Positions 4,270-43,858 of a stretch of DNA of 64,000 nucleotides are shown piece after piece. The notes under the pieces were generated by a model that worked only from the letters and a program-made list of their open reading frames with translations, was not told the DNA's origin and searched no databases. Origin of the DNA: a virus (lineage: Duplodnaviria; Caudoviricetes); the IMG/VR virus record IMGVR_UViG_3300009031_000221, positions 384,001 through 448,000 of that record, one strand, 5' to 3'. The position numbers were made by a program, and so were the translations under genes. Position 1 is the first letter of the stretch. Each line of letters begins with the position of its first letter.

Positions 4270-4296
4270 ATCTACGCTGCTATCGTGGAAAGTAAG
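4270..4296 (-). promoter_or_regulatory. Conserved promoter motif + leader hairpin
   Basis: CTTACTT-N12-GCGTAGAT; loop CAGACGA. Confidence 0.8.
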
Positions 4297-35876: not shown

Positions 35877-37654
35877 CCTAACAAGCCTAACGGGTCAACG
35901 CTTCGTAGAATCCCGGCAGATCTTCCTTCGGGGTCTCGAACTGCTTCAAGTGTTCCTTGACAGCATCCTCAATCTTGTCCTCTTGGAACCCATCAATGCA
36001 CCTATGGCCACATGACGTGCACTGGCGTACGTCTACCATCGCCGTCAGTATCGCATGACGCGGATGCCCATCAGGTGCATACTCAAACTTATGAGGCTGC
36101 GGCCCGTCCATCCAGGTCATGGATCCATCACAATCAGGGCACCGAAAATCTATTAGCATTTCTTCCTCCAATTATCGTACATGACTTGTATTTCCCGTGC
36201 ATTGTCCAGATTCTGTGTCTCAGGATGCTCCCAGTCAATATCGATGGCATCGAACAGATTGAGCGCCTCTATCATATACTTCCGTTTGCCCTTGACCAGA
36301 AACTTCCCCGATACCACATGAACAACCTGCCATGTGTCCGGTTCCAATGGATCCTCTACAACCGCTAGCCATCCCTTCTGCTGTGCCTGCTTGACCGTCA
36401 TAGCAGGGCCGGGAATATTAAATGCATCCTCCGGGAATTGGTAGGTTTGATCATCTACCTCAAACCCTTCAAGAAAGTCTAGGAAGTCCATATGCCCCCT
36501 AACCGTTCGTAAATGGAACCCCGAGGGCCTTCGACACTAGATACGCGAACCCGAAAAACAGTAGGGTGCCGATGCATGATGGAAGCAACACACATAATAG
36601 GAATAGCCCTATTTCGCCAATGGCATAGCATGTGGCACACAGGTACATCCATTGTGTGTGAATCTTGTTCCTAAGATTCATCCTTATGTGCCCCCATCCA
36701 GAAGTCCTGATAGCTCTTCATCATGTCCGTAACACCCTGGAACTCATCTGGAGCCTGCTCATGGCTGCATTCAGGGCAAGTAAAGTATGCCGTCTTCCAA
36801 GATCCATGCTTGGAGGTAGCCTTCTTGGTGTAGCAGTCCTCTACGTCAACCAGCAACAGAGCGGTGCAATTGCTACACCGGATTTGGCACGGGATGACTT
36901 TTGTGGATTTCCCTGGTTCAAGCACCTTCATTGCTGCTTTCTCCCCGTGCCGCCTTCAAGTCCGCTACCAGTCGACGCAACATGTCAATGGTGGTGTACG
37001 CACATTCAGAATCCCCACCGGGCATGAACCCATCGAATTGCTCCTGTGTGTACTTCTCCAAGTAGCACGTATGGAAAAGGATGTATTCCAAGTCGGTTTC
37101 GGTCAAGGGCCCTGCCTTAGCGGGGTCGTTGAACACCGTGAGGGGGCGGTCATAGCTAGTAACGTCATAGGTCAGGAATACCGTCACCCAATGGCAAGGA
37201 ATCCCATTCTCCCGGATAAATTCACGCATTCCGGTCTTGGACGGGTCGTCGCGGCACAATTCTTCATCCTCAAACAATTCGGCGCCCTCAAGCGGTCCCC
37301 AGGCCTTAGGATCTGTAACACAGTCACACCTATGGTAGTACTGCTTTGCTTCATTCTGGAGCGCATACATCGCGATTTGCATCGGTTACTTCTTTAGGGC
37401 CTTGGCCTCATCGTAAAGGAATTCTGTGATGCGGCTATCCGCTTTTGCCATTGCACCGTCCCACCCTTCACCGTAGATGTAGTGGAGGATGCCAGTATTG
37501 TAATCGTAGAGCGTCCACATGGTGGGGATTTGCTGTGGGGATGTTTGAAACAACACGAACCGGGGAGGATCCTCAGGAAGGTATGCCCGAACAGGGACTT
37601 TCTTCCTTCCCTGCTGTGCATCTTGAATTTCGCTCCAGGCCATTGCCGAGTCCC

Positions 37655-38458
37655 CTAATTCACCAGCGCCCAAGCGTCATCACGGTCGATGATCAGCGTG
37701 GTGCTGGACTTGTTGTCCCGAACCGCCTTGAGCTTGCCGGAGTTGGCCTTCTTGTCTTCCGCCACAAGGTAGGTCAGCGTCTTGCCCGCCGAATCCTTGA
37801 CCGTGCCGCCCTGCTTCTCAATGGCGTCCTTCAAGGAAGAGTCACGGAAACCCGTGAAACAGAAGGACATTCCCAGGAGTTTGCCGCTAGCCTGCTGGAT
37901 GGTGATGCCGGCTTCGCCAATCAGTTTGCCGATGAGCCCCGCCTTCTCCTGGAAGCCCATGACAAAGGCCTCCGCCGTCGTCTGGCTGAAGCCAGGGATT
38001 GCGGCGATTTCGGAGATACGGGCCTTCATCATCTTCGAGAGGGTGTTGAACCCGGCATCCGCAATCGACTGGGCCATCGAACGGCCAATCATCGGGATGC
38101 CAAGCGAACCCACGAAGGTGCTAAGGGAAAGGATTTTCTTTGCGTTCAGGTTGGTAACCGCCTTGTCACCGGAACCGCCAACGCGACGGCCACCGATTTC
38201 CAGGTCGGCAACCGCAACCGGGTCAAGCAGGTAGAGGTCAGCGATGTCCGTCACGAAACCCGCCTCAATGAGCGCCTCGATCAGGGTATCGCCAACGTGC
38301 AGGACGCCAATCTTCTTGACCCAGCGCTTGATGGAGCCGGAGGCCTGTGCCTCGCAGTCATCGTTGCGGCAAACCAAGTATTCGCCGTCCCGCGTCAAGT
38401 TGCCCTTGCAGGAGGGGCATTGCGTCGGAATCGTGAAGTATGCACGCGTGGTTGTCAT
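37655..38458 (-). CDS. ligA: NAD-dependent DNA ligase, C-terminal half (Zn finger, HhH, BRCT)
   Basis: PTQCPSC...CRNDDC, LGIPMIG, IPGFS, GMSFCFTG...GGTV..S...LTYLV. Confidence 0.9.
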   Translation of the reverse strand: MTTTRAYFTIPTQCPSCKGNLTRDGEYLVCRNDDCEAQASGSIKRWVKKIGVLHVGDTLIEALIEAGFVTDIADLYLLDPVAVADLEIGGRRVGGSGDKAVTNLNAKKILSLSTFVGSLGIPMIGRSMAQSIADAGFNTLSKMMKARISEIAAIPGFSQTTAEAFVMGFQEKAGLIGKLIGEAGITIQQASGKLLGMSFCFTGFRDSSLKDAIEKQGGTVKDSAGKTLTYLVAEDKKANSGKLKAVRDNKSSTTLIIDRDDAWALVN

Positions 38459-38498
38459 CGTATGAGTCCTTGAGGAGATCGTCTGTCCCCTGTGATGT

Positions 38499-38525
38499 AT
38501 CTACGCGGAACGGAGGAAAAGTAAG
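38499..38525 (-). promoter_or_regulatory. Conserved promoter motif + hairpin, drives ligase C-half
   Basis: Exact; GGGGA-CAGACGA-TCTCC. Confidence 0.8.
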
Positions 38526-38575
38526 CCCGTCAAGGTTGAACAATTTCGTGCTCAACATAGTACTCGAATGATACG

Positions 38576-38980
38576 CTAGTTGATCTCCGGAGAAATGGTG
38601 AGATTTTGACGCTGGTCAAAGGCTACAATGACGGTTTGGTCATCATTAATGATGTGACCATAGGCGGTCAAATCATCTAATAGCATATCCTGACATTTCG
38701 CGAATCCTTCCAACGTTTTTTCAGTGACGGATCCTGTCCACTTCACCTCGCGGAATGATTGACACACGTAGCATTCAATGTCATCGGGGTCTCCTCCCAT
38801 GGGGGCATCTGTGAAAGTTACTAGCCGACTCCCCTTAGGCAGTGGATCCGGTATTGCCTCCAATTCAGGTACGGGATCAACATCTACACGACCTCGCAAA
38901 GGGGTATACCGATGCTGATAACATATTCTCAAATATGCCATGGTTAATTCTCCAATGCGGATAATGCTAACATTGTCCAC
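38576..38980 (-). CDS. Hypothetical protein inside the ligase split
   Basis: GTG-start ORF overlapping the endonuclease 3' end. Confidence 0.45.
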   Translation of the reverse strand: MDNVSIIRIGELTMAYLRICYQHRYTPLRGRVDVDPVPELEAIPDPLPKGSRLVTFTDAPMGGDPDDIECYVCQSFREVKWTGSVTEKTLEGFAKCQDMLLDDLTAYGHIINDDQTVIVAFDQRQNLTISPEIN

Positions 38981-39765
38981 GCTTTGTGTTCCATACGCTC
39001 GATCCTATCAAGGGATAGGACACCACTATTCATGTTGTGCGTTGCGGCATACTGATGCAACGCCTCAATCTTCACTTTAGTCTTGGGATCATTTAGGAAT
39101 TCCTTGGGTTTGATTTCCCAAAGCTCCTGAATCCCACCCTCAAGTGTCACCAATAGATCAGGGATGTATTGGTGCTGCTGTCCCTCAAATGTGTACGGGA
39201 TCGCAAAGGGTTCGACTTCTACTTCTTCTACTTCATCGTATTGATCCAGAACCCAAAGCACCCGCCGTTCCCAGGATGATCGAACGTAGACCATCTGATC
39301 GGCTTTCACTGATAAAACCCACCCGGCATGGAACTTTTGATTTCGCACCCAATCTGGATGAGCCCGGATGTAATCCATAGTTCGTTGAGAGCATGCTGCC
39401 CGAAAATCTGGATTGTTCCGATGAACATTGTACTGGGCGATGGTTTCGGGGGTATGCCTCATACCTCGGCGTTTCGTAGCGGCTATTTCTGAAGAATTAG
39501 CGGATCTCAAGCTATCCATGCCAAAGGCCTTCTTGAAGGACTCCGCATCAGGGTAGCCATGCTTCTTGTAATGATGCGCTGAAATGCAATTAAGTTTCAC
39601 CTGACATACCGGGCATGTCAATGCATCCGATGCTAATGTAACACACCGATTCTTACGTCCTCGTATTAGGGGCTGGAGGGCTTGACATGCAGAGCACCAC
39701 TTAGGGTGGCTAAATTTGGTTCGCTTGGTTATATCCGCCCCGCAAGGGCATTTCAATTCATCCAT
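38944..39765 (-). mobile_element. TnsA-like PD-(D/E)xK endonuclease with Zn-finger/NUMOD3-like N-terminus (homing endonuclease candidate)
   Basis: YVRSSWE, EPFAIPY, YIPDLLV, WEIKP; GMRHTPET. Confidence 0.75.
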
Positions 39766-39766
39766 G

Positions 39767-40774
39767 TTAGTAGTCCCGATCGGACTTCCCGAATAACGTT
39801 ACCTCCAAAGGGGTCATTACATCCGAATCCTTGCGGCGACGCCCCGCATTGATTGCCCCCTGAATAGACTTGATGATGCCGATATGCCCAACTTTCAAAG
39901 TATTATTCTGCCCCAAGGCGGCACTGATCGTATCCGAATGCTGGACAAACAAGGGCACGAGCCTATCGGCAGCCAAGCTGGTATTCAGCTTATCTTGGTT
40001 CTCGTTCCAGATCAGAAATATGATGGGCATGATGTTAATACCCCAAAGCGGCAACTTGGTGGCGCCTTTCGTTGAAAGGGTTCTCGTTGCAATAGGATTC
40101 CACCAATTTAGGAAATTTGCCATCTTCTGGAACTTAGAAGGATCATCGATATACATCATGTCCTCCGTAGCATTCCGAGAAACTACCATCTGTGTGATTC
40201 GTTTCTTGGAAATACAATCATCAAGCCGCACTTGCATGTTTATTACGGAAGTCAGACTGGCAGGCCCAGGCTTCTGAAAGGCATTATTGGTATCCAGCAA
40301 CCCCGCTTTCTTGAATACCGGAGTCCATTTGCACTCCCCTGATCGTTGCCCGATCTTTGCACTAGCCCCTGCCGTTAAGATCGAACCGGCATTCTTGCTA
40401 TTGAGCGCATAGAAGTAACGATGCACCGCATTGCGGCTACTGCAAGCCGTAAGGGTAACTGGAAAGTCATTGATGGTATCATGAATCGTAGCGGTCATAA
40501 CTCGATCAGATTCGGTAACATCATTGGATTCCGACAAGCAGTAAATGCGGTGTTGCCCATCAACAATAATGTATTCGTCTTTGTTCTTCGGGTGCTTGAG
40601 GAGTACCAGATCGCCCTTGATGCGAACGATGTCCCACGATGACCCTAATGCTACAGCCCGTTTCTTTGCGATAGGCCGATTGACGAATCCAAACCCATGT
40701 TCAAGCTTGAACAGGTGGAATTTCGTCCCCAGGGATCCCTTCTCGATAGATATATTGCACTTTGTAGTAGCCAT
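39767..40774 (-). CDS. DGQHR (ParB/DndB-like) domain protein
   Basis: IIVDGQHRI. Confidence 0.65.
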   Translation of the reverse strand: MATTKCNISIEKGSLGTKFHLFKLEHGFGFVNRPIAKKRAVALGSSWDIVRIKGDLVLLKHPKNKDEYIIVDGQHRIYCLSESNDVTESDRVMTATIHDTINDFPVTLTACSSRNAVHRYFYALNSKNAGSILTAGASAKIGQRSGECKWTPVFKKAGLLDTNNAFQKPGPASLTSVINMQVRLDDCISKKRITQMVVSRNATEDMMYIDDPSKFQKMANFLNWWNPIATRTLSTKGATKLPLWGINIMPIIFLIWNENQDKLNTSLAADRLVPLFVQHSDTISAALGQNNTLKVGHIGIIKSIQGAINAGRRRKDSDVMTPLEVTLFGKSDRDY

Positions 40775-40886
40775 TGATGATATCCTTGATGTGCGGGTGA
40801 AATTACCCGGTAGATGATCTACCCGGCTAAGGGATCAAATTAACCTACCCTTAGCACTAAATCAAGGAATAAATTTCGAAGGCCCT

Positions 40887-42041
40887 TTAGATGTCATTCA
40901 CGATGCCTTCATCAACATTGGCTTCCAAGCGCGGAATAACGTCGTTCCTCTTGGAAACCAGGACGTTGCATCCTGGGAACAACTTGAGATGCTCGACTTG
41001 GCGAACTCCCGCAAGGCTAGCACGGGTAACCTTGGCCCCGCCAAGAATGACCTCATCAAAGATCGCAACGGGGGTGATTCGGCCCGAGTTGCCAACCTGC
41101 CATTGGATATCACGGATGATCGTCCGCTTTGCCTCGAAGGGAAACTTGTAGGCGATCGAACCCTTAGGGCGCCCGCCCAAATCTCCGTGGATTTCCCGGA
41201 TAACCGTATCGTCAATCTCGACAACGAGACCATCAATTTCGTATCCGATCGCCTTCCGCTTGCTCGCACAGTAGATCTGGTATTCCGCCTGAACTTCAGC
41301 CAAGGCTTTCCATACCGACCATTTCGGCGTTTGGAACCCCATGTCTTCCAATGCCAGGAGTTCCGTGGACTTCGATGCCATGGACACGCCTTGCGGCATC
41401 AGGTTGTAGCTCTTGAATGTCAAGTAGGAGCACTTGGCGAAATCGGTCTGCCGCATCAACGTGCCCGTGGCAGAGTTACGTGGGTTGGATTCACCCGGGA
41501 AATGCCGTGCAAAGTCCGTGTGCATGATGATGACTTCGCCCCGAACCCAAACATTGGCGGGAGTCGGATTGCCATCAGGCAGGAATGGGGGAAGCATCTT
41601 CACAACGCCCTGCATCAACATGGCATTGCGAGTAACTTCCTGGCCAATGGAACCATCGCCACGAGTCACTGCCTGAACCAGCACCCTATTGAGGTAATGC
41701 ATGCTCAAAGAGCAACCGTCAAGCTTGTCCATGACGATCAGGGATGATTGAGCGCTGCAACTCGTTACCCAGGCCTGCATGTCCTCGAAGAGCTGTGCCT
41801 TGTTCAGGGAACTCATCGGGATGGTGTGCTTGACCTTGGGCCAACCACCGGCAGTCGGACCTTGCGACACGGGAGCGCCGATGGTCTTCAGGAATGCGTG
41901 GTTAGGATCCAACTTGCGGAGGTCATCCTCAACAGAGTCGTAGACCGGATCGCTGACCAGAGGGGTTCCGGCGTAGTATGCCGCTTTCCACTTGGTCAGA
42001 TTGGCAACCATCTGATCGATTTGTGCTTGGTTCGCGTTCAC
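40887..42041 (-). CDS. ligA: NAD-dependent DNA ligase, N-terminal half (Ia, adenylation, OB)
   Basis: YYAG.P.VSD..YD, KLDG, VRGEV, IDGLV, WQVG.SGRITP, NDVIP; GTG start. Confidence 0.92.
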   Translation of the reverse strand: MNANQAQIDQMVANLTKWKAAYYAGTPLVSDPVYDSVEDDLRKLDPNHAFLKTIGAPVSQGPTAGGWPKVKHTIPMSSLNKAQLFEDMQAWVTSCSAQSSLIVMDKLDGCSLSMHYLNRVLVQAVTRGDGSIGQEVTRNAMLMQGVVKMLPPFLPDGNPTPANVWVRGEVIIMHTDFARHFPGESNPRNSATGTLMRQTDFAKCSYLTFKSYNLMPQGVSMASKSTELLALEDMGFQTPKWSVWKALAEVQAEYQIYCASKRKAIGYEIDGLVVEIDDTVIREIHGDLGGRPKGSIAYKFPFEAKRTIIRDIQWQVGNSGRITPVAIFDEVILGGAKVTRASLAGVRQVEHLKLFPGCNVLVSKRNDVIPRLEANVDEGIVNDI

Positions 42042-42084
42042 TGGGGGCTCCCTCTATAGGACATCGTCTGTGCCCTTACGTACG

Positions 42085-42111
42085 ATCTACGCTAAAAGAG
42101 GCAGAAGTAAG
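42085..42111 (-). promoter_or_regulatory. Conserved promoter motif + hairpin, drives ligase N-half
   Basis: Exact; GGGCA-CAGACGA-TGTCC. Confidence 0.8.
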
Positions 42112-42349
42112 TCTAGACCTACCGTGGGAATTCTATCGAATCGGCACCATTATCACACCACTTCCGGCATGAAATATTTCTACGAGGATCCCCGTTTTCG
42201 CAACGCTTGGTGCATCGTTGAACACTGCTGGCTTGGTTGCCCAGGTATACGCCAACGGAAGCCCCCGCAATACAAATCAACACAAAAGCTACAATCAACC
42301 ATCCCTTTGCGGACATTCTATCCTCCATACGAAGTTGCCTCTACATCAC

Positions 42350-42376
42350 ATCTACGATGTACCCTCGAATAGTAAG
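42350..42376 (-). promoter_or_regulatory. Conserved promoter motif (two mismatches)
   Basis: CTTACTA-N12-TCGTAGAT. Confidence 0.6.
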
Positions 42377-43858
42377 TCTAGCGCTGAACGATGTGCCACC
42401 CTTGGTGAATCACATTGGAGATTTCCTCAGCCAACGCGGGGTCAAGGACTCGTACCAGTTCACGCAATGAATGAAGGTCAAAGGATTGCGTCTCCTTGAC
42501 CGTCCATCCAAGGACTTTCGCGATTCGTTCGTGCATGGCGCTCTCCCCTAGTCGTCCCAATGAATCAGTTGTTCCACCGTGTAATCCTCGGGAAGGGTTT
42601 CAAAGGGATCCAGTTCTTCCCACTGTGCCTCCGAAATCGTATCCCCCTGGGCATAACTCTGGGTGTGTTCCTTGCCTTCATTCCACCGCACACTACCATC
42701 CTCGAACAGGAAGATGGTGTAGTCCACGTCGTACGTCAACGAATCATCAGAGCTATCGTCTCCGTAATGGAATGCATACAAGAACCCGAATGTTCGTTTG
42801 ATTGTCCTCATTCTACCCCCAGGTGACTTCCCATTTGTGATAATGGGCGTAGGTCACAAGTTCTTCCAGGTCTTCCAACCTACGGATGGTTTGTTCATCC
42901 GTGTTGCCGCAGTCGATAACCTTGCAACCCATTTCAATCTTGCCGACATCGCCCTTCTCCCCCGCAATGGCACGAACCGCTTGGCTCATGGAGGGTTCAC
43001 GGACAAGGTGTTGGCGAGTGGACTCCCGATTCTTGGTCTGCATGAGCAAGTGCTTGATCGTGGGCAAGTGTTCCACGTCCCACGATCCGCACATATCATT
43101 GGTATCCTCACACAGGATACGCAAGATGTCACGGGCATTGCTATTGGCGAAGTTGCATTCCGGCGCCTCGGAAACCCGGGCGATATCAAAGCCATCCTTG
43201 CAGTAGCCGCAACGGGCACCCTCGACGCATCCGGGGAAATCGCAAGCCTGAACCTGATTGTGAACCGGGGCTTGGGGGCAACCGAATGTGATCGACATGA
43301 CGGGCTCCTAATTCACAGAGGGTTCGTAGGGTTCAATGACGCATTTCGCGGCCCAACCCTTGTCTTTGGCCTGGAGGAACCGTTGAGCAGCGGCTTCGGT
43401 CTTCCAATGCTGGGCTTGTGTCGGATTGGTCGTGTAGGGCTTACGGTTGGGTTGCCCCTTGGTCACGTATGCCGTGGTATTCCCGTCCCATTTCCAGTTG
43501 ATGACGTAAACCATTGGAGCCCCTACAGCTTGATGGATGGAAGATCCTCGATCCGATCTACCCATTTCCAAGCGTTGAGGGCGTTGCACATCATCTGGGC
43601 CACGCTGCCCTTGGTGGGGTAATAGACACGAACTTCAGCCGTACCGTAGAAGGTGCGATCCCAGTCAGTGATGTCACCTTCATCCAGCATTCGGTCCAAT
43701 TCCGCAGAGCGTGTACGAGCCGCTTCTTTGACGCCCTTCTTGGTGGTTGCCCACACGGTGTCGATCTCGGTGTCCGACTCGCTGATTCGCTGCCACGTAA
43801 TCTGGTAAATCTTCGTCATCGTAGGTTCCTAAGGGTATCGTCTGCGCCCCGGTAGTAC

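Follow-up and report, generated by a model that had tools for sequence, protein, structure and literature searches.

A two-gene NAD-dependent DNA ligase in a huge phage, with a candidate homing endonuclease gene in the break

To investigate the NAD-dependent DNA ligase (LigA) of a huge phage, we analyzed 64,000 nucleotides of a Caudoviricetes genome, hereafter the window, which corresponds to positions 384001-448000 of the 536-kb virus record IMGVR_UViG_3300009031_000221, rated complete by CheckV. LigA is a textbook single-chain, multi-domain enzyme that clamps nicked DNA. Here, its domains are encoded by two genes, the outer two of a run of five on the minus strand from 42041 to 37655 (384, 335, 273, 134, and 267 amino acids); the open reading frame (ORF) coordinates given in a first-pass annotation of this DNA are exact. 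The features on which the argument turns are the following (window positions):

40887..42041, minus strand: LigA N-half, 384 amino acids; domain Ia, nucleotidyltransferase (NTase) domain with KxDG lysine K106, OB fold
40887..41012, minus strand: 3' part of the N-half that is of the split type, comprising roughly its final 40 codons, the E-A-N-(L/V)-D tail, and the stop; apparently of one origin in all split forms
37655..38458, minus strand: LigA C-half, 267 amino acids; Cys4 zinc finger (C14, C17, C30, C35), HhH, BRCT
38944..39765, minus strand: ORF273, PD-(D/E)XK nuclease of TnsA fold; CxxC...H...H finger at the N-terminus, NUMOD3-like region; candidate ligA-specific homing endonuclease

Four DNA sequencing runs from one groundwater study contain the entire stretch with no differences. 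This indicates a groundwater origin, but the runs are perhaps this DNA's own source and so lend no independent support. No insert-less joint of the ligA halves was seen in contigs from these runs, and a megablast search of the region against GenBank phages gave no match.

The two ligase genes together make up one LigA. Pfam matches on the N-half are DNA_ligase_aden (PF01653; 7e-39) and DNA_ligase_OB (PF03120; 7e-18), those on the C-half are HHH_5, HHH_2, and BRCT (PF14520, PF12826, PF00533), and the LigA domain order is kept across both genes. On the 656-position PHROG LigA profile, the N-half covers positions 2-383 and the C-half 388-635, so no part of LigA is missing or duplicated; the NCBIfam LigA model gives the same complementary coverage. 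Both profiles are matched from position 2-3, that is, from domain Ia, for which PF22745 (Nlig-Ia) is on record in most relatives. Across 42 N-halves, Y22, D31, and D35 of this domain are invariant, as are D108 and G109 of the KxDG motif, with K106 at least 90% conserved; the four zinc cysteines are invariant across 54 C-halves. The gene cannot be read as a single-polypeptide LigA: the reading frame stops after the OB fold, and a separate promoter, ribosome-binding site (RBS), and ATG, 2.4 kb downstream, serve the Zn-HhH-BRCT part. The cut lies in the OB-to-zinc-finger linker. The first-pass annotation had thus correctly described a LigA carried on two genes 2.4 kb apart and broken at a domain boundary with the motifs of both halves kept. 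The LigA adenylation domain occurs once in the genome, where no ATP-dependent DNA ligase domain was found.

The 2.4-kb gap holds three ORFs, ORF335, ORF273, and ORF134, of which ORF273 links the window to other split ligases. It matches PF08722 (Tn7_TnsA-like_N) at 2.9e-11, with 44.2 bits against a curated cutoff of 26.5. Its AlphaFold2 model has a predicted local distance difference test score (pLDDT) of 88, and the best Protein Data Bank matches of this model by Foldseek are TnsA structures (1t0f and 1f1z; E 1.5e-6, ~128 aligned columns). We found 22 relatives at 36-54% identity. The CxxC...H...H finger is conserved across the family, and the catalytic E..PD..ExK residues (E185, D203, E214, E217, and K219) are invariant but for D203, which is conserved at ≥90%. 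The TnsA_N Pfam domain is matched in 19 of 20 family members, and NUMOD3 in 6 of the 20 (best E 1e-4), the window copy being without a NUMOD3 match. No Pfam transposase family matched any gene called in the ligA gaps; no dedicated TnsB/TnsC search was made.

Wherever we looked up an ORF273 relative (seven of seven), it was placed between a LigA N-half and a LigA C-half. Contig L178, found via ORF335, also has a TnsA-domain gene (376 amino acids) in its ligA gap, which brings the nuclease to nine of nine loci, the window included. It is the sole gene in the gap in four of the eight other contigs. These loci include phages whose ligase is just 38-42% identical to that of the window and that lack its CTTACTT promoter. 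In L172, the nuclease gene overlaps both of its neighbors, the 3' end of the N-half with its start and the beginning of the C-half with its stop. The nuclease also shows presence and absence with clean boundaries: contig L170 has it and L005 does not, with N-halves that are 82% identical. Altogether, this nuclease subfamily appears to be tied exclusively to the ligA break among the loci examined.

Three observations concern other copies of the nuclease. In L170 and L172, its start codon lies within the conserved codons of the N-half tail (L170:4692-4702, ATG in ..AAT GAC..; L172:5001-5011, ..GAT G..), so part of the tail conservation may reflect nuclease translation start and not ligase function. 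The short nuclease calls in L170 and L171 (178 and 198 amino acids) were considered as decaying copies and rejected, as their open frames extend upstream, in L170 to the ATG within the N-half tail. Away from ligA, a remote relative in the 595-kb record LR756511 (34% identity) matches in the catalytic core only, and a second short TnsA_N-like match elsewhere in the genome to which the window belongs, at G000:C1:103551-103739 and outside the window, has an internal TAA stop and may be a dead nuclease copy.

The break itself is widespread. A search with the N-half returned relatives 45-67% identical in two forms, one of ~365-390 and one of ~635-670 amino acids. The short forms make up at least 63 N-half protein clusters, and all 63 stop within a few residues of one another, their tails following the pattern E-A-N-L-D-E-G-x-x-N-D. 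The C-half as query returned ~90 stand-alone C-halves, and the two-half architecture is retained down to 38% identity. In the two closest relatives on long contigs, just 79 and 72 nucleotides separate the adjacent halves. The N-half stop of L005 is followed after 2 nucleotides by promoter, hairpin, RBS, and C-half, and in L170, the nuclease ORF fills precisely this stop-to-promoter space, with the orthologous C-half promoter directly after the nuclease stop. As relatives with adjacent halves already have the internal promoter, it was not gained together with the insert of the window. The internal promoter thus appears to be ancestral in the clade of the window, and the 2.4-kb spacing appears to be a lineage-specific filling of an older gap. 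The first-pass annotation had proposed a naturally heterodimeric LigA rescued by acquiring a promoter cassette. The two polypeptides stand, but a one-off local rescue does not: the break is old and shared by at least 63 clusters, and split and internal promoter are already present in relatives with halves 72-79 nucleotides apart.

Relatives in IMG/VR, which came from an alignment-based scan (a single-protein pattern scan gave none), are mostly fused. Seven huge-phage IMG/VR contigs (35-436 kb) have the C-half ~0.7-1.2 kb upstream on the opposite strand, which excludes cis-splicing there. The N-half tails of these contigs (L051, L061, L062, L063, L070, L073, L077) carry the N-L-D signature but a canonical SLHN motif. 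Another relative has a 105-amino-acid ORF between its ligA halves. One metagenome scan was dominated by bacterial LigA (~30% identity) and gave no close relatives.

Phylogenetic analysis suggests that the end of the N-half has a different history from the rest of the gene. Trees were built from representatives of 90%-identity clusters from metagenomes; the N-half protein was cut 60 residues before the ..VIP motif, and each part was given a separate tree. On the tree of the whole N-half region, the split/fused label requires 18 changes. On that of the front ~310 amino acids, it requires 34 changes, and well-supported branches force at least 16 of these. Constraining the split forms together in this front part costs 1263 log-likelihood units (approximately unbiased test, p-AU 3.9e-8), and a single origin is rejected. 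The last 60 amino acids, with the tail excluded, require only one to two changes, compared with ~39 in shuffles. Of 63 split forms, 61 have the tail signature; none of the 56 fused forms does. The changeover can be followed in one pair of 79% identity, split P0044 and fused P0085, which are the same until ..ASLH, after which P0044 is of the split type. The parts of the locus also differ in divergence: between L169 and L171, the halves are 87% and 83% identical and the nucleases just 49%, and between L005 and L170, the N-halves are 82% and the C-halves 65% identical. Most simply, this would mean that the junction segment, short and of single origin, has entered many different ligA backgrounds by recombination. 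One origin for the junction segment and many for the rest is the pattern that co-conversion in homing produces. It is much less likely that at least 16 lineages converged by adaptation on these 60 residues, a loop-length difference among them.

Both halves are maintained by selection. Synonymous divergence (dS) between the window and its relatives is saturated (≥1.4 or undefined), so we used closer pairs to estimate the ratio of nonsynonymous to synonymous rates (dN/dS). In the sole pair with unsaturated dS, L169 and L171 (~0.7), the N-half has a dN/dS of 0.13 and the C-half one of 0.20; both are thus under purifying selection. The two-chain structure prediction, which, like dN/dS for each half, was proposed in the first-pass annotation, scored 0.62 versus 0.01 for the best of three controls, a mark that 58 of 80 solved complexes attain, as do 2 of 110 mismatched pairs. 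Model runs shared at least 63% of contacts with partner pLDDT of at least 80, and the modeled interface joins OB residues 311-358 with C-half residues 5-41. Full-length LigA structures exist, however, and the pass may be a memory of the intramolecular contact; the model therefore shows a likeness to LigA and is not evidence of binding. From the sequences, we infer that the halves assemble and have NAD+-dependent ligase activity.

Taken together, we consider it fairly probable that the LigA of the window is a two-subunit enzyme and that its split allele spreads together with a homing-type nuclease specific to ligA. LigA-N (Ia-NTase-OB) would carry out the adenylation chemistry, and LigA-C (Zn-HhH-BRCT) would serve as the DNA clamp, each having a CTTACTT..GCGTAGAT promoter of its own for transcription. 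Reassembly of the two chains, probably on nicked DNA, would use the OB/Zn-finger contact that ordinary LigA makes within a single chain. The break would not be local: the split allele would consist of ~40 OB 3' codons, an E-x-N-L-D tail, a stop, and a new C-half start, with a single origin, and would have been moved by recombination into many huge-phage ligA backgrounds. The likely vehicle is the TnsA-fold nuclease gene, resident only in this break, which we infer to act as a free-standing homing endonuclease. It would cut nuclease-free alleles and be copied in with the flanking split segment, and its later loss would leave adjacent halves. In the clade of the window, the gap sits between a stop codon and a promoter and so may serve as a landing pad for further cargo, such as the DGQHR/ParB-fold gene and orphan ORF here and an intein-bearing methyltransferase elsewhere. 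We also lean, with a little less assurance, toward a more specific and general version. Here, ORF273 would belong to an undescribed TnsA-core homing endonuclease family with zinc-finger and NUMOD3-like modules, dedicated to the OB|Zn-finger junction of huge-phage ligA. This family would co-convert ~40 codons and repeatedly make two-subunit ligases (at least 16 introgressions in our sample), leaving a clade that replicates with a ligase assembled in trans, even from halves kilobases apart, on separate promoters or on opposite strands.

Several points weigh against spread by the nuclease. Four of four split relatives sampled via the N-half are without it; as most split alleles sampled through the ligase lack the nuclease, the split persists without it and could predate it. 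In the one record of T5-like phages examined, whose ligase is also split, a 200-nucleotide gap separates the subunits, with no nuclease gene annotated between them. A co-conversion tract was not detectable in the C-half (39 and 37 changes versus 44 in shuffles), leaving the pattern on the upstream flank of the break alone. The residues common to the last 60 amino acids could partly be adaptation to a free C-terminus, and some "fused" and "split" forms in the trees may stem from very different phages. Finally, compared with 19 relatives, the nuclease of the window has two deletions, of 6 and 12 residues, in its NUMOD3-like region; its catalytic residues are intact, but it may be an impaired copy. 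The split may therefore have come first, unrelated to the nuclease, with an OB|Zn linker that tolerates a break and a stop/promoter/start gap that was later colonized by nuclease and cargo. The nuclease-free relatives and the T5-like pair, a probably independent split in the same linker, are in line with such a history, as is the other gap cargo, an intein-bearing methyltransferase with duplicated promoters, and the same caution has been voiced for phage 25 gene 43 (PMC2988022). We nevertheless regard it as unlikely, since it leaves unexplained why the junction-proximal 60 amino acids have one origin when this is rejected for the rest of the gene, why the nuclease subfamily is found at no other site in nine of nine loci, and why, in lineages without the promoter cassette, the nuclease gene directly adjoins the halves or overlaps them.

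The nuclease could instead be a working partner of the ligase, in a co-regulated nuclease-ligase (and ParB-fold) module for DNA repair or host conflict. Such a module would account for the strict linkage of nuclease and ligA at all nine loci, the recurrence of the DGQHR/ParB-fold gene by the nuclease in three loci and in both orders, and the start/stop codon overlaps in L172, which suggest translational coupling. However, the presence of the nuclease varies between relatives as close as L005 and L170, its sequence diverges far faster than its flanks in L169 and L171, its composition is foreign, and NUMOD3 modules are typical of homing endonucleases, and we give a partnership little credence. 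Phage genes are often interrupted by introns and inteins, and relatives have inteins near the ligA locus, so the halves might also be rejoined into a single-chain enzyme by a group I or II intron, trans-splicing, or a split intein. So-called fractured genes, in which split inteins surround a nuclease gene, have been described (PMC2677866). Rejoining is nonetheless very improbable here: an in-frame stop ends the N-half, and the C-half has its own promoter, RBS, and ATG. The N-half tail and C-half leader amount to 24 residues (from 5 residues past VIP to CPxC) versus 15-23 in fused relatives, which leaves no space for intein halves, and no Hint/intein Pfam domain matched in either half. The view of the first-pass annotation that splicing does not join the halves agrees with an Rfam search of 37000-42600, which returned no match, and hence no intron family, at E≤1, and with the seven other phages that have their halves on opposite strands. 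Equally hard to credit is a broken and decaying ligA, with one or both halves as remnants and a phage that uses the host ligase. A foreign, low-GC insertion in an essential-type gene is a frequent start of a pseudogene, but dN/dS is 0.09-0.20 in both halves, catalytic residues and zinc ligands are invariant or nearly so, the architecture is kept down to 38% identity, and promoter and RBS are intact at each half; the decay that the first-pass annotation had raised is not borne out.

Several known systems resemble this locus, which is in kind a gene-in-pieces associated with a nuclease, as in Aeh1 nrdA/mobE, together with a LigA split of the sort seen in T5-like phages. In T5-like phages (Demerecviridae), the NAD-dependent DNA ligase is annotated as subunits A and B, ligA/ligB (PMC3632103). 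The first-pass annotation mentioned neither this precedent nor a link between the TnsA-like gene and the ligA break. As in the window, the same enzyme is cut in the same inter-domain linker: subunit A ends 8 residues past the ..VIP motif, and subunit B begins just before the CPxC zinc finger. The window halves match the T5-type N-only and C-only PHROGs end to end (phrog_3359, 4-324/325; phrog_3498, 4-237/256), but identity to the T5-like halves is just ~27-28%. T5-like subunit A keeps a canonical ..TLNN motif and has neither the E-x-N-L-D tail nor a split-type OB segment, so the T5-like split is probably independent of that in huge phages. Our literature search did not cover most subscription journals and is thus weak evidence of novelty; within it, we found no biochemical study of the T5 ligase pair, no ligase splitting described beyond the T5 annotations, and no TnsA-like phage homing endonuclease.

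Genes split by free-standing homing endonuclease genes include Aeh1 nrdA (mobE), T4 topoisomerase genes 39/60 (mobA), and phage 25 gene 43 (a seg gene) (PMC2988022). The first-pass annotation had cited Aeh1 nrdA as a precedent, which is apt, as a nuclease gene resides in the ligA break. As in those cases, a nuclease ORF lies inside an essential DNA-metabolism gene whose products must reassemble, and close relatives differ in nuclease presence and have mosaic flanks. The window differs in its host gene, ligA, and in its nuclease, which is a TnsA-type PD-(D/E)XK enzyme with NUMOD3-like modules and not of the HNH or GIY-YIG type. It also differs in that the split allele extends across dozens of diverged huge-phage lineages, mostly nuclease-free, and in that homing is here proposed from comparison. 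ORF273 shares its catalytic fold with Tn7 TnsA but has an N-terminal zinc finger and a NUMOD3-like DNA-binding region in place of the TnsA C-terminal domain. The "fractured genes" noted above (PMC2677866) are similar in that a nuclease gene separates the two parts of a metagenomic phage-type gene; the window differs in that there are no intein halves and the chains remain separate. New here are the TnsA-type nuclease family and its exclusive tie to ligA, the scale of the split and its single-origin junction segment, and the gap as a cargo slot behind a portable promoter.

These loci provide dozens of diverged natural LigAs under selection with the catalytic half on one protein and the DNA-clamp half on another. 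With fused counterparts up to 79% identical, they offer a system for studying the OB/Zn contact and the assembly of the HhH clamp, and for split-ligase engineering. They would also represent a selfish-element process at unusual scale, a testable case of a nuclease spreading a change in protein architecture and not just itself. If the cleavage specificity proposed here is true, the nuclease would add a TnsA-type member to the homing endonuclease families.

Each ligase gene is preceded by the same promoter-hairpin cassette:

42085..42111, minus strand: N-half phage promoter; CTTACTT at 42105-42111, 19-nucleotide spacer, GCGTAGAT at 42085-42092; kept upstream of the L005 N-half
42058..42076, minus strand: N-half leader hairpin; 6-bp stem, CAGACGA loop, followed by an AGGGAG RBS and GTG start
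38499..38525, minus strand: C-half phage promoter; CTTACTT at 38519-38525, GCGTAGAT at 38499-38506
38473..38491, minus strand: C-half leader hairpin; 6-bp stem, CAGACGA loop, followed by an AAGGA RBS and ATG start

The first-pass annotation had described a promoter, a CAGACGA-loop hairpin, and an RBS at each half, and the cassette is indeed found before both genes. It is the general gene-head of this phage and nothing particular to ligA. In the window, GCGTAGAT is seen 32 times versus 1.1 expected (28-fold over chance), and the full CTTACTT-N19-GCGTAGAT motif has 94 copies genome-wide. The hairpin core ACAGACGAT is seen 4 times versus 0.42 expected, and the position of the hairpin is conserved at most promoters of this phage. 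The leaders have a minimum free energy of about -10 kcal/mol, with no added stability over shuffled sequence (z -0.3 and +0.2), so the case for the hairpins is their conserved place and sequence. Scans for sigma-70 promoters and terminators gave no signal above shuffles. Relatives at 60% protein identity (L005, L166, L170) share the promoter motif.

A typical cassette consists of, often, a TAG/TAA stop, then CTTACTT-N19-GCGTAGAT, a GGGxA-C(A/G)(A/G)A(C/T)GA-TxCCC hairpin, an AGGAAC-type RBS, and ATG. It heads most genes; examples in the window are at 4270, 28095, 44616, and 57528. Promoter-stem-loop cassettes (PeSLs) reportedly flank and shuffle genes in T4-type phages. The phage of the window is similar in having a repeated promoter, stem-loop, and RBS unit before most genes, and it differs in promoter sequence and phage group; recombination at its cassettes is suggested by one duplication only, described below.

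The three genes of the insert differ in composition from the ligase halves, with GC contents of 46-48% and third-position GC (GC3) of 46-56%, compared with GC3 of 67-78% in the halves, and no canonical phage promoter was found before any of them. This suggests that the insert is foreign DNA. The two genes besides the nuclease are:

39767..40774, minus strand: ORF335, DGQHR-motif protein with a ParB/Srx-like fold (weak matches); GC 47.8%
38576..38980, minus strand: ORF134, orphan; GC 46.4%; alternative 121-amino-acid version from an ATG at 38941

The DGQHR motif of ORF335 is invariant in 15 relatives. The protein matches TIGR03187 and TIGR04172 at E ~0.008 only, far below their cutoffs. By fold, all 25 best matches are ParB-type (KorB, Noc, ParB, PadC), followed by sulfiredoxin and SspE, although these matches are weak (best E 8e-3). 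Homologs of ORF335 lie beside the nuclease in the ligA gaps of L169 and L178, in both gene orders, and ORF335 appears to be cargo that travels with the nuclease. For ORF134, no homolog was found in Pfam, PHROGs, NCBIfam, PADLOC, or any fetched ligA locus, and a PADLOC scan of all three genes of the insert was uninformative.

Nucleases of several families appear to be drawn to the ligase locus. A gene in the L166 gap is flanked on both sides by promoter copies with near-identical spacers, a duplication that suggests insertion via recombination at promoter cassettes. This gene, between the ligA halves at L166:3214-5865, encodes an 883-amino-acid N6/N4 methyltransferase with Hint, LAGLIDADG (intein), and Mrr_cat matches. 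Large N6_N4 methyltransferases with Mrr_cat, of the same family as the L166 gap gene, lie just downstream of the C-half at L170:6472-8076 and L178:8291-10066. In L005, which is without the TnsA-like gene, a GIY-YIG/NUMOD3 homing-endonuclease-type gene (L005:9058-9879) adjoins the 3' end of the C-half.

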